Assembly: GCA_964016885.1 (NCBI GenBank)
Contig: OZ024741.1
Coordinates: 176,266,001 to 176,330,000, forward strand
Source: Eledone cirrhosa
Lineage: Eukaryota
Direction: 5' to 3'
Length of the DNA stretch: 64,000 bases
The position numbers and the translations under genes are program-made. This document shows, in pieces, positions 451 to 63,780 of the stretch (its first letter is position 1; each line of letters opens with the position of its first letter). The notes beneath the pieces are model-generated. The model had not been told where the DNA came from and did not search any database. It worked only from the letters and a program-made list of their open reading frames with translations.

Positions 451-970
451 AAAAGACGTAAAATAAGAAAATATCTTTTAAAAAAAATTTTTTTTTAATT
501 TTTTACTTACTTAAATTTTCACTCCAACTAATTAGTTTCTGCAATGGGATAAAGACAGTTACGTAATCCAACTGGCGAGAATTCATTGCGTCATCAGGGA
601 GTCTATTCTCAGTTAAGTCTCCAGGCAATGCGCGGACACTGGCGGCTCATATAAAAATAATAATAATTCGGTAGATCGAACAGCTTGCGAGGACTGGATT
701 CTATGTACCGAAATTCTCACTGCTTCAAGTCAAATGGCCGATTCTAAAGAATCAATCACGTGACACAGAGGCTAGTTAGAAGGAATGGGATGGTAAGATG
801 ACTGACGCCTACTAACACCCCCAAAAAAATTTTTTTAGAAGTGGTTTTGGCAAGTTTGCTCGACAAATCAGTGATTTGGAGATAAATTTAAGTAAGTAAA
901 AAATTTAAGTAAGTAAAAAATTTTAAACAAATTTTTTTTAAAAGATATTTTCTTATTTTACGTCTTTTAT
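451..970 (-). mobile_element. Non-autonomous HHR-bearing element with ~70-bp inverted termini, next to (TA)n
   Basis: 451-520 is the approximate reverse complement of 880-970 (aaaagacgtaaaataagaaaatatctttt / aaaagatattttcttattttacgtctttt); internal HHR on the minus strand. Confidence 0.75.
521..602 (-). ncRNA. Type I hammerhead ribozyme
   Basis: Minus strand reads ACTCC-CTGATGA-cGCAATG..CATTGCa-GAAA-CTAATTAG-TT-GGAGT: 5-bp stem I, canonical core, palindromic stem III, GUU triplet. Confidence 0.8.
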
Positions 971-1125
971 ATTATTGTTCTGCATTCTCCTGCATTGAAC
1001 CACCTATGTACTATGACATAACCTGTGTATTTGCTAGCATGGGCGTGCATCTGTGCGCTTATGTTAGTTGATATATTAAATTATCTATCTATATATATAT
1101 ATATATATATATATATATATATATA

Positions 1126-1312
1126 GGTTATATTTAATTTGTTGGGATACAGAATTGTTGCATTTTTTAAGGGTATGTCAATATTGATTTATAAAACTAA
1201 CCTATATTATATTTTATCTGATGAAAGCGCACCATAGTTTGCCTTGTTGACCCTAGAAATATGTATAATGAAATAAATATGGTTTTATAAATATAGTTTC
1301 CATTTGTTAAAA
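1126..1312 (+). mobile_element. Short dispersed element with a degenerate HHR (1211-1274); a longer copy lies inverted at ~36650-36992
   Basis: ATTTTAT-CTGATGA-aag..cta-GAAA-TATGTA-TA-ATGAAAT; clear reverse-complement similarity to 36650-36800 and 36965-36992. Confidence 0.6.
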
Positions 1313-1329
1313 TATTATATATATATATT

Positions 1330-4300
1330 TATTAAAATAACAGATTAAAGTTTAAGCAAAGAATCGCTGCTTTCTCCCTTAACGGGATCTTCTGAAACTA
1401 ACAAAGTTAATCTGTGAACGCAGAAGTGAATATTTCAAAAAACGTTGCAACCGGAGGAAGACAGGAAGACGATACTTTGGTTCGTGGAAACGTTCCCTGG
1501 CAAAGAACGAGAAAAAACGAATATAATACGTCATTATTTGGAGCGGTGAAAAACAATTACACGCAAAGAGAAAACCACGTTTATTGTATAAAAGAAGTTG
1601 TAGACTAATATTCTATTAGGTGGTTCATAGAGACGTTCTCTGGCAATGAACGAAAAAAACGAAGATAATACGTCATATGTGGATCGGTGAGAACAATAGC
1701 ACGCAAAGACAAAACCACGTAAATGGTATAACTGAAGTTGTAGACTAAAATTGTAACTAGGAAATCGAATGATTCTCGGCTTCAGAGTTAAGAATAAAGT
1801 AAATAAAATACAGAGGTAATCGAAATTAAATAATTACATACACGCATCCATATACACAAGCATACGCGAAAACACTCGCCATAGGTATACAAATACACGC
1901 ACGTACACAAAGAAAAACAAAACCCTCACGCCCATACAGAACCCATGCAACGCCTGTACACGCACGCATACGAATGTATACACCAAATACACATACAAAT
2001 ATATATATTCATCTATATATATGTGTTTGCGTGTATACATATAATTAAATAAACGTATATAAATAAATAAATACGTATATAACAAGCGCACACACATACC
2101 TACATGTAAATACACATTTGTTCGGAGATACTTACGTCAACCAAAACACGAAGTACACATATACACACACCCTACATACGTACGAACCCGCATACTCACA
2201 CAGACGCAAAACTCACGTATACACATAACCAAAAACATATGTACCAGAATATAATATATACGCCAAAACACACAATCAAATATACGTACGAGGAAGTATA
2301 CGTACCTTCACAAAACATACAGGTAATATATACTTACCTATACAAGTAATGGTATATATACAAGTAATGGTATAAACATAACATATACAAATATACCACA
2401 TCAAGACGTAAAATATCCGTGTATAGTTCATACTATCCGTTAGGGTATAATGTGGGGCTGTAATACAGGAAAGTGTTGTGCAATTCATGTTTACAAGCCG
2501 AAATTGCCTCAGATTTTTTGTTTAAGATGTGGTCTTTGGCGTAGAGTATTTCCAGAACATCAACGGCGCAGAGGTCACATGGTCTTTTATTTCCGTTATA
2601 CGATCTAGCCCTAGCTAGGATCTCCCAGTGTAACTTATATTGGGTATGGTTGTCTTTTAGACTCCACATATAAGCTGAAAGTGACGTCATATTCCTTCTT
2701 AAAGGGTAACGAAAAGAATGGGTATTCATGTAAAGACGCTGCTTGAATCTATTGGTGGTTAACCCTATCTAGGCCCTACGGGACGTGGGTGTTTCAAACT
2801 TACATCTGTAGACAATGTTACTAGAGTGGCATTTCCCGGATAGGGGGCAGTCAACCCGATTCCTACAATTACAGTTAGTACTAACTACAGGGTTGCAAGT
2901 GTTCCTACGGCTAGGTAGTTTAGCTAAATTTGAGGTGTGATGTTATGTGCAAGGTTAAGAGTCGTAGAGTAAGACATTTTAATAGTATTTCTATTAAACA
3001 TTTTACTATATTTATGTGTAGGGGGAACATGCTTCGTAATAAGGGAGAGGAAGATCTTAGCTAATGGTGTGGCTACCTCCATAGTATATGTTGGGTTATA
3101 CCATATAATGCGTCGGGATCTATTTCTTCTAGGTCTATTCTCGTACTCTGTATATGCTACCTTATCGACAAATCCACTCCGAGCAAGAGCTTCATTGTAA
3201 TATGTGGAATGGTCGTTGAAAATATGCTCGTTAGTAGATAGACGGGAAAGCCTCAAAGAAAAGTTTCTTACCAGGTTCTTGGTTATGCTGGAAGGATGGT
3301 TAGAAAGCTTACTTTTGTAATTAAGCGTATCATTCGGCTTTCTATACGGGTAATGAAAGCCATTCGATAAATTGAGGGTAACGTCGAGGTAATTAACAAC
3401 CGAGAAGTTGGCCTCAACTTGTATGGAGAGGTTGAAGCCTTTAAAGAAGGCTGTGAGTTCTTTTCTGAACCTGCCGCAAGCACGAGGGCCGCACTTAGTC
3501 ATGGTCAAAAGACCATCGTCACGCTACAAACCACCGCCCACGTTGAGGAATTCTTCCTCGATAGAGAAAAGAAGGAATAGGCCGATAAGATCAGTAACCT
3601 CCGCAGAATCACTGGCGCCCATACTCACGTCCAATGGGGTACTATTGGATTTTTTAATCCAAATAGAGTCGTCGAAATTAATCACCGACTTACGGGCATT
3701 GAGGATGACATCAACTTCGAAATCCTTAACCACTGTGAGTGTTTTAGCGAAATTGATAGCTCTAAGGAGGAGTAGTAATTATTGATGTCGAATTGGATAA
3801 AACGGCAATGTTTCTTGTTGCATATGCCGTTGAACCAATCAATCACCATGAAAGAATTGTTCCACAGTGCAAGAGGGGCAAAACTTCTAATTTCAAGTAT
3901 AATTCTATCAAGAATCCTTTTACTAAGACTACCTAAATCGGAATTCGTAGGGTTAATAAGCCGAATAGAAGGGTTGTTCGGAAAATTGGATGTGTCATCC
4001 TTCAGGGTAAAGTGGGGAGAAATAGGGTCCAGAGGTTCAGTCCGGTCCAGGATGTTGAGATCAGAGGTGGTTTTAAACCCAGCATCGTTGATTTCATTAA
4101 TGACGCTCTGATGAGTTTTACGGTAATCCTTAGTTACAGCATTATATAGCAGTTTATGGTAAGTATTGCGCTCCACTTGATATAGATTGCCAGTTTTGTC
4201 GGAATGGACGTGCACGGCATTAGAATCCTTAATATAATGAATTCTATTCTTCAGGTTCTGCTGGAAGGAATTGCTCCTATTCCGAAATGTTATACTCCGT

Positions 4301-4380
4301 ATGAATTCCAAGACATCATTTTAGAAGGGTAGCAATGCTGAGTTATTCGGAGGGTTATTATAGGTTTTAAACCCAAATGG
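1330..4380 (-). mobile_element. Penelope-like element, 5'-truncated and disrupted (RT, Cys-rich linker, GIY-YIG, 3' UTR)
   Basis: Minus ORF pieces: QFDINNYY (RT motif A), MGASDSAEV (motif B), RDDGL, YLDVTLNL..YRKPN, RRIIWYNP, C-terminal CDLC..LNKKSE..ACKH; ~120-bp duplication in the 3' UTR (1490-1608 / 1632-1748). Confidence 0.9.
1349..1399 (-). ncRNA. HHR-like motif with CAGAAGA core at the PLE 3' terminus
   Basis: AGTTT-CAGAAGA-TCCC gttaa GGGA-GAAA-GCA..TGC-TT-AAACT; related copies at ~18288-18338, ~24030-24080 and 63275-63420. Confidence 0.55.
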
Positions 4381-4384
4381 AATA

Positions 4385-62656: not shown

Positions 62657-62836
62657 TAATTGTTTCTACTTTAGGCACAAGGCCAGCAATCACCCAGTGC
62701 ATTACGGGTACTTTATTTTATCGACCCCGTAAGGATGAAAGGCAAAGTCAACCTCGGCGGGATTTGAACTCAGATCATAAAGGGACGTAACTATGCTGGA
62801 AAGCATGGCGTCCGACCCTCTACCGATACTGCCAAT
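62657..62836 (-). mobile_element. tRNA-derived SINE
   Basis: Same family as 58553-58742. Confidence 0.85.
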
Positions 62837-63105
62837 AATGAGAGGTATACAGATATATGTGTATACATACATATACATGTATATATAAACATATATTTTT
62901 CACAAGTATGTGAGATTGTACGTTGTCGACCTTAACCAGTGTTGCTCTATGATTATGAGAGACAAGATAATCGAAATAATTAAATTGACACAATATCAGA
63001 GTTATGTAAAATACTATAAAAAGGAATAATATTCTCCCTCCGCCTTTCTGAGATTTTCTCGCATGCTACTGACGTATGTAGTTAGGGCTCTTTCCCCTGA
63101 GGGGC

Positions 63106-63196
63106 TCCCTTGATAAGCTGGCTTACCTCACAACAATGTTACATATCTATGATATAACATATTTGCATAGTGACCAGCGAAACTGTAAAGTCGGGA
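63106..63196 (+). ncRNA. Hammerhead ribozyme, U3-A8 variant, diverged relative of the 590-bp unit HHR
   Basis: TCCC-TTGATAA-GCTGG..CCAGC-GAAA-CTgtaaAG-TC-GGGA; upstream ccctccgccttt motif and downstream aggtat shared with the 590-bp unit. Confidence 0.8.
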
Positions 63197-63274
63197 CTTA
63201 AGAAAAAAATAGGTATATCGTATCTATTATTCCTTTATATAATATTTTATATATATATATATATATATATATTT

Positions 63275-63420
63275 ATTATAAGAACAGATTAAAGTTCAAG
63301 CAAAGAATGACTGCTTTCACCCCTACCAGGATCTTCTGATTTCAGAAACTGATTTTCAAAAGATCCCGTTAAGGGTGAAAGCAGCAATTCTTTGCTTAAA
63401 CTTTAATCTGTTCTTATAAT
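63275..63420. mobile_element. Mini foldback made of two 3' termini of the 1330-4380 PLE family
   Basis: attataagaacagattaaagt.. / ..actttaatctgttcttataat; arms match 1335-1398. Confidence 0.8.
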
Positions 63421-63460
63421 ACATATTTGCTTTATGGGTTTATATATATATATTTATATA

Positions 63461-63780
63461 TAATAGAAAACGAAAAATCAGTGATGCATCTGAACTCAGT
63501 TTATTGTGAGTTACAGTTGTTTCTCCGGCGGACAGCTCGAGTTTGATTCTGGACCCGCATGTTCGACGGACACGTCTAAATGATTTCGGTGCATATTCTC
63601 TCAGTCAGAAAATAAGCTCCGAAATCATTAAACGTGTCCGTCGAACCTGCGGGTCCAGAATCAGACAGATCCACACAATGATCCACACAATGATCACACC
63701 TCGAGCTGTCCGCCGTCGAGACAATTGTAACACACAATAAATTTAGTTCAGATGCATCACTGATTTTTCGTTTTCTATTA
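63461..63780. mobile_element. Foldback with ~135-bp arms and a degenerate CCG-type HHR (63634-63733)
   Basis: taatagaaaacgaaaaatcagtgatgcatctgaact / agttcagatgcatcactgatttttcgttttctatta; GTGT-CCGTCGA..GAgA-CAATTG-TA-ACAC. Confidence 0.7.

Follow-up and report, generated by a model that had tools for sequence, protein, structure and literature searches.

Head-to-head elements of the window

The stretch examined here, 64,000 nt of the Eledone cirrhosa genome (contig OZ024741.1, positions 176,266,001 to 176,330,000 of the forward strand; hereafter the window), carries ten elements in which two inverted copies of one terminus face outward from an inner junction. A sequence-only reading of the window had ascribed to them outward-facing inverted arms, a hammerhead ribozyme or hammerhead-like motif near the 3′ terminus, and (TA)n flanks, and had regarded them as retrotransposition products of Penelope-like elements (PLEs). 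On balance, our analysis favors the view that the ten are head-to-head joined RNA-3′-side ends of seven PLE families and of three non-coding tandem hammerhead repeats (named retrozymes below), which lie in TA microsatellites and probably arose when a Penelope enzyme nicked both strands and started two separate cDNAs from different fixed sites on a single RNA. The insertions are listed below; A denotes the untailed and B the tailed outer end, each at one fixed position per family.

452..1094, F451 retrozyme insertion; untailed arm 452-890, tailed arm 900-1094 (tail 968-1094); 559-nt unit, RNA sense outward in both arms
16224..16417, F16224 retrozyme fragment; 19-nt left arm and right arm, both untailed (A+A, an exception); 487-489-nt unit
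16585..18188, F16753, head-to-head 3′ ends of a Hydra-like PLE; tail at 16585-16749, followed by the left arm through 17076 and the right arm at 17077-18188
18263..18404, F63275 insertion; an untailed arm meets a tail-only arm in inverse orientation
18787..20109, F18958, head-to-head 3′ ends of a Hydra-like PLE; arms at 18957-19539 and 19538-20109, with the tail at 18787-18956
21512..23669, F21510, Hydra-like PLE; a short inverted arm without tail at 21512-21671, then a truncated open reading frame (ORF) of the endonuclease to 22323 (plus strand) and the tailed arm to 23669 (tail 23539-23669)
23942..24103, F63275 insertion; a tail-only arm meets an untailed arm
35421..36009, F35421, head-to-head 3′ ends of a Neptune-like PLE; one arm ending at 35668 and one starting at 35671, with the tail at 35421-35471
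46378..46947, F46378, head-to-head 3′ ends of a Neptune-like PLE; tail at 46378-46421, outer 31 nt of the right arm missing
46947..47808, F46947 retrozyme insertion; truncated left arm 46947-47057, right arm 47060-47808; unit of about 681 nt with a TA tract
63274..63461, F63275 insertion; two arms at 63274-63339 and 63354-63421; the 63461 element splits the tail, which continues at 63943-64000
63461..63847, F63461, head-to-head 3′ ends of a Hydra-like PLE; the untailed arm runs to 63603 and the tailed one spans 63602-63847, including the tail at 63782-63847

Local alignment scores of the inverted arms were compared with those of dinucleotide shuffles. All ten named elements exceeded their controls (scores of 33-1107 against shuffle maxima of 19-45), the weakest pair being that of 16224, whose 19-nt arm scored 33 versus 19. 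One arm is extended by a family-specific tail, and several elements are thus longer than the sequence-only reading had stated. The 46947 element, which is without its left outer end, abuts the 46378 element. The proposed enrichment of (TA)n flanks was borne out as well: (TA)4 or more occurred within 40 nt of 188 of the 206 called ends, compared with 9.9% of random 40-mers of the window. Target-site duplications were not discernible within the (TA)n flanks of the insertions.

Families nested in each other's TA flanks were common among the fetched loci; in the window, the 63461 element sits in a TA-rich stretch of the 63275 element tail (63274-64000). Two more TA-flanked hairpins with a one-sided extension, at 13875-14270 and 23719-23897, probably have the same design, and the latter shows the 3′ half of a hammerhead.

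Penelope-like families behind seven of the termini

To obtain further copies, the species' own 3.0-Gb genome was searched with each family, and 20-30 of about 40 scored loci were taken from 374-3361 candidates with 1.5-kb flanks; 40 longer stretches were fetched in addition. Eleven families were analyzed in all, namely those of the ten elements and F4903, a further tandem unit described below. Seven of the ten termini were colinear with ORFs of GIY-YIG endonucleases, and four of these also ran into reverse transcriptase (RT) fragments in the sampled stretches (L112/L113, L124, L122, and L289). Pfam matched GIY-YIG in one of seven proteins scanned. The L124 RT had 643 homologues, mostly without a name, and the nearest named ones were molluscan, including an octopod. 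The F63461 reference is partly a nested F63275 insertion, so its ORF link rests on three loci colinear beyond the nested part; these run into a GIY-YIG ORF, one of them with RT fragments. Three PLE bodies or ends in the window are related to the listed insertions.

1328..4320, minus strand, broken Hydra-like PLE that retains fragments of the RT and of the C-terminal GIY-YIG; belongs to the family from which 63275, 18271, and 23942 derive
14272..16046, minus strand, 5′-truncated Neptune-like PLE with GIY-YIG ORF 14703-15173 and a minimal hammerhead near 14500-14465; source family of 35421
61616..62355, minus strand, old Neptune-like PLE end, 73-76% like F46378

Four elements had been traced by the sequence-only reading to PLE 3′ untranslated regions in the window. 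Three of these links stood, since 35421 matched 14266 at 90%, 63275 matched 1341 at 87-95%, and 21510 belongs to its own ORF. The fourth did not: 46378 and 61616 are only 73-76% alike and represent sister families. The derivation from PLEs was supported as a whole, except that 451, 16224, and 46947 proved to be ORF-less tandem units rather than PLE 3′ untranslated regions.

As judged by motifs rather than by a tree with reference PLEs, five families appear Hydra-like and two Neptune-like. The Hydra motifs listed in PMC8557442 were seen in L124, L112, and the window ORFs, with invariant C186, C189, N205, E209, C214, and H216. The set comprises DKT and RWK-like motifs, a CxCX5C linker, and CxxC and CxH around E and N, with no CCHH, together with a (TA)n target; it was found by alignment in 16753, 18958, 21510, and 63275, and from broken ORFs only in 63461. 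The Neptune clade is characterized by a CX2-5CxxC linker ahead of a CCHH-type GIY-YIG. In 35421 and 46378, a Neptune-like cysteine cluster occurred in ORF 14703-15173 and the F46378 ORF, a feature that does not separate Neptune from Nematis. The F35421 family tail is 57 nt long. Both Neptune-like families share a segment, from the tail up to end A, that is 81-91% alike (14276-14334, 35442-35500, 46392-46450, and 60267-60334) and is a candidate protein-binding or start-site signal.

Non-coding tandem units

F451, F16224, and F46947 have no ORF and are built of tandem units (559, 487-489, and about 681 nt, respectively), each with one type I hammerhead of canonical core. The units are low in GC (34-37%) and are dispersed, from partial units to 13-mers, beside PLEs. 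By the sequence definition available in PMC7229834, they are non-LTR (long terminal repeat) retrozymes. A fourth tandem unit, absent from the ten elements, occurred in two arrays.

4908..7648, F4903 tandem unit of 590 nt, non-coding; head-to-head arrays with fixed ends at unit positions 165 and 1
11635..12682, second F4903 array, single-direction

The F4903 copies of the window are 98-100% alike and hence very young. No hammerhead was found in the 590-nt unit by our own scan, and Rfam gave nine weak matches to it, none a ribozyme. F4903 is thus not classed as a retrozyme, yet it leaves the same head-to-head footprint with ends A and B.

Pairing of ends A and B

The outer ends of each family fell at two discrete positions, with the tail of 45-170 nt between them. 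In the ORF-bearing families, 82 head-to-head insertions were called, 80 of them A+B and two B+B; one of the latter, L109, is an internal junction at which the tail runs into the next ORF start, leaving A+B in 80 of 81. Ends of F451, F16224, and F46947 were typed by eye, and automatic rows for these families were dropped as artefacts (an internal A/T palindrome, an internal TA tract, and duplicate rows). Among 28 distinct F451 insertions, the 17 resolved two-armed ones were all A+B, nine were single-direction, and two were left unresolved. F16224 had four two-armed insertions among 19, three A+B and the window copy A+A, and F46947 had six resolved among 19, all A+B, with a fuzzy end B at the TA tract of the unit. 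All six two-armed F4903 insertions, likewise typed by eye, were A+B. Over all families, therefore, A+B was observed in 112 of the 114 resolved two-armed insertions. Queries containing the tail force one B end; in the five families queried without it, A+B occurred in 52 of 52 insertions. This counted rule, common to autonomous PLEs, retrozymes, and F4903, is the new part of our results.

The arms themselves were variable. Either arm could be the longer (untailed in 39 and tailed in 42 of 92 insertions), and 11 insertions, eight of them F63461, had arms equal within 5 nt. The tailed arm stopped inside the tail in eight of the 92, six of these in ORF-bearing families, and so shared no sequence with the other arm; the window holds two further tail-only arms (18263..18404 and 23942..24103). 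Arms of one insertion resembled each other more than arms of different loci in six of the seven PLE families, and in F451 they diverged by 0.53% within an insertion compared with 1.06% between loci, with locus-private variants on both arms in L083, L093, L295, and L300. Inner junctions were concentrated at hot spots in F63461 (L147-L210), roughly 165-175 nt beyond end A, and in F35421 (L002-L028), producing palindromes of near-constant length that mimic miniature inverted-repeat transposable elements (MITEs).

Hammerheads within the arms

A type I-like hammerhead fold reading toward the outer end was present in each of the ten family references, in agreement with the sequence-only reading, and in the window left-arm copies lay on the minus strand and right-arm copies on the plus strand. 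The core was canonical in six of the ten families, three of them PLEs. Position 4 was changed in 16753, 18958, and 63275, the single change of these three PLE families, and 63461 had two departures. Position 4 is in fact changed family-wide in all four of these Hydra-like families, with the stems kept. Stem I of the 46378 hammerhead has only 2 bp. Copies in the window include the following.

521..602, minus strand, F451, canonical type I hammerhead with long stem II and palindromic stem III
16267-16345, plus strand, F16224 hammerhead with mutated cleavage triplet
16826 (minus strand) and 18112 (plus strand), F16753 variant-core hammerheads
19012 (minus strand) and 20054 (plus strand), F18958 variant-core hammerheads
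GAAA at 23465, F21510 hammerhead with a 101-nt stem II region
35637 (minus strand, decayed) and 35836 (plus strand), F35421 minimal hammerheads
46635 (minus strand) and 46766 (plus strand), F46378 hammerhead cores with weak stem I
47460-47530, F46947 hammerhead with mutated GAAA
within 63461..63847, F63461 hammerhead-like fold with two core departures

In total, 22 family-anchored hammerhead-like copies were located in the window, 13 of them with the family core intact. Two more canonical hammerheads outside the ten elements (25716 and 34913) bring the number of motif copies to about 24, close to the 25 or so motifs that had been claimed for the window. That figure stands for motif copies and fails for intact ribozymes. 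A fixed structural descriptor found three canonical hammerheads (mean 0.03 in 30 local shuffles) and, in a relaxed version that leaves position 4 free, six (mean 0.13), levels well apart from those of the shuffled controls; a loose core pattern gave 26 matches in the window versus 12.2 ± 3.7 by chance. Most window copies are variant or decayed, and about 25 motifs are not 25 working ribozymes. Rfam detected no hammerhead in the window at gathering score; its sole hammerhead match was HH9 at 34897-34966 (E 0.018), and its 106 matches at E up to 1 were nearly all microsatellite matches to miRNA models.

By prediction, the ribozyme would cut 26-276 nt inward of the nearer end, end A, which indicates that it does not make the insertion ends. 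Since the cut sites are internal and F4903 has the same footprint with no hammerhead found, the hammerhead does not define the element design.

The best-formed hammerhead of the window, at 25708-25792 with a 7-bp stem III, belongs to a 400-nt element (25512-25910) that has 66-nt inverted ends and no TA flanks and lies within an older element whose inverted arms are long (24754-27575). The canonical minimal hammerhead at 34897-34966 is solitary, with no inverted partner seen.

How the insertions may arise

In the mechanism that we favor, the GIY-YIG domain would nick both strands of a (TA)n tract, reverse transcription would begin at site B from one target 3′ end and at site A from the other, and each cDNA would stop at a variable point before end joining unites the two head-to-head. 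On a tandem or circular template, the arms could run through several units and so yield arrays. Retrozymes would borrow the PLE enzyme in trans, and the role of the hammerhead, which probably acts as a dimer, would be to process tandem transcripts, not to set the insertion ends. Biochemical data on Poseidon PAc of Anolis accord with several of these steps, as the purified PLE protein nicks and extends both strands, two internal start sites delimit the tail, insertion needs no hammerhead cleavage, and the protein is predicted to be a dimer (PMC11167929). It is possible, if rather uncertain, that such a dimer holds one RNA asymmetrically and thereby gives each strand a different fixed start, and that both sites are present on small circular non-coding RNAs, hammerhead-bearing or not, which undergo rolling-circle reverse transcription from both ends at once, so that one mechanism would account for the tail, the head-to-head repeat, the pseudo-LTR, and the retrozyme arrays.

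Several of our own results weigh against the mechanism of two primings on one RNA. Two insertions broke the pairing rule (L228, B+B, and the window copy of 16224, A+A), and 119 ends in the seven PLE families were unpaired, being single-armed or cut by the 1.5-kb flanks. Microhomology was not enriched overall at the junctions (at least 2 nt in 23% of 101, versus 22% of 225 simulated joins), and unaligned or inserted bases occurred at 52% of inner junctions. In F21510, arms differed by 0.78% within an insertion and by 0.70% between loci; elsewhere, the closer arms fit one source RNA but may also come from gene conversion after insertion. Choosing loci by best match favors young copies. No useful sequence similarity between retrozyme units and PLE ends tied a retrozyme to a particular PLE, and in PMC11167929 the start site did not differ between strands, so A+B pairing is not predicted by that system alone.

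Fold-back is a rather unlikely alternative, in which one cDNA folds back or template-switches onto itself (self-priming) and the one-sided tail is left when endonuclease resolution trims one of the ends. PMC3846280 proposes self-priming and reads junction palindromes in this way, while PMC8557442 ascribes the tail to endonuclease resolution; near-symmetrical hairpin junctions in the 11 equal-armed insertions and private variants common to both arms would suit it. It predicts, however, that the first arm is always longer, whereas here either was (39 versus 42), and it leaves unexplained the six insertions of ORF-bearing families whose tailed arm shares no sequence with its partner. Both points argue against fold-back of one cDNA, and we infer two primings. 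The two cDNAs might instead come from two PLE ribonucleoproteins, each with its own RNA, that prime the nicked ends independently, a property of the staggered cut fixing the start site at each end. This is unlikely as well, although overlapping arms up to kilobases long are simplest with two templates and the predicted dimer (PMC11167929) is in keeping with it. Locus-private variants on both arms favor one source, though two transcripts of one locus or later conversion also fit, and no mixed-family pair occurred among the called pairs, where a method using one family reference could not show one. The suggestion that the elements are MITEs moved by a DNA transposase, with hammerhead-like motifs arising by chance, is very improbable. 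Copies of F63461 retrieved with the whole element are nearly uniform (about 303-336 nt) and TA flanks suit Tc1/mariner, but in every family the tail is one-sided and the junctions vary, three loci of F63461 itself lead into a GIY-YIG ORF, and the hammerhead folds exceed shuffle level. We therefore rejected it on the asymmetric ends, resolved copy lengths of 236-4191 nt, lack of symmetric fixed terminal repeats, and ORF links.

For the tandem hammerhead arrays, growth mainly by local unequal crossover after insertion of a single PLE end, rather than by copying of multimeric or circular RNA (discussed in bioRxiv 10.64898/2026.07.22.740005), is a doubtful explanation. The period-2 or period-3 variant patterns of F451 arrays L292, L294, and L296 are the trace that block duplication leaves, and they leave room for later block duplication or multimeric circles, either of which may have occurred. 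Nevertheless, multi-unit arrays stand on both sides of the inversion at dispersed loci with precise A and B ends, one haplotype (53C 124G 522A) fills arrays on many contigs, and units of the same arm are no closer than those of opposite arms (0.60% versus 0.53%). Copying of RNA by a PLE enzyme thus remains our preferred origin of the arrays. PLE mobilization of retrozymes has been put forward as a hypothesis (PMC7229834; bioRxiv 10.64898/2026.07.22.740005) and is supported by the footprint that retrozymes share with PLEs; the non-coding hammerhead repeats are likely passengers of PLEs.

Relation to known systems

The design itself, with head-to-head arms, one-sided tail, and (TA)n targeting, is already known for PLEs (PMC3846280, PMC8557442, and PMC4209133). 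Head-to-head was described as the most frequent arrangement, with the tail on one inverted repeat (PMC3846280); an inverted truncated copy and a 30-40-nt tail were reported, with (TA)n bias in Naiad, Neptune, and Hydra and hammerheads in Hydra (PMC8557442); and minimal hammerhead pairs were found on opposite strands 100-700 bp apart (PMC4209133). Our families resemble these endonuclease-bearing PLEs of the Hydra and Neptune clades in the C-terminal GIY-YIG, the inverted 5′-truncated copy, the one-arm tail, the (TA)n bias, and the terminal-repeat hammerhead (PMC8557442; PMC3846280). They differ from the published descriptions in longer tails (45-170 nt versus 30-40 nt), tail-only arms, and a counted pairing (80/81), and several of their hammerheads depart at position 4 or carry long insertions in stem II. 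Like animal non-LTR retrozymes, the three retrozyme families are, as far as sequence goes, non-coding low-GC tandem units with one type I hammerhead each beside PLEs (PMC7229834; bioRxiv 10.64898/2026.07.22.740005), with units of 487-681 nt versus about 170-400 in those published. They form head-to-head arrays with two fixed ends in (TA)n, and the available text of those two sources holds no relevant passage on inversion or target site. Poseidon PAc in vitro likewise uses two start sites that set the limits of the tail, nicks and extends both strands, has an AT-rich target, and can dispense with the hammerhead for insertion; unlike that system, in whose available description starts do not differ between strands and paired arms do not appear (PMC11167929), the ends of one insertion here almost never use the same site. 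A literature search, with subscription papers and supplements outside its reach, found no paper on paired start sites or inverted retrozyme arrays.

The footprint also differs from two familiar kinds of inverted insertion. In LINE-1 twin priming, a pair of cDNAs primed from the two target ends is joined head-to-head; the RNA 3′ end is not known to be duplicated in the inversions, and the second start varies, whereas in the present insertions both starts are fixed and overlap of the arms is usual. MITEs are short and non-coding, with a palindromic look and TA flanks, in contrast to the present elements with their variable length, one-sided tail, RT and endonuclease links, and no symmetric fixed terminal repeats.

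PMC8557442 treats as open how the inverted and tandem structures of PLEs form. The near-universal A+B pairing in 11 families of one genome, together with tail-only arms, offers a sharp prediction for the existing in vitro PLE system. Furthermore, annotation of such TA-rich genomes calls for caution, as many short palindromes in them are retroelement products, not MITEs.

Other repeats of the window

A true DNA transposon is available in the window for contrast, a mariner-like transposase remnant with 96-nt terminal inverted repeats at 12807-13722. Retroelement ORF remnants at 37161-40093, 52662-55819, 56845-57594, and 60604-61644 are, as we take them from their motifs, a GC-rich PLE-like RT and LINE-type RTs. 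Finally, a dispersed SINE-like repeat of 70-190 nt, some copies of which stand beside TA tracts, was found at 20238, 24561, 29991, 31610, 31958, 49615, 58546, and 62655.

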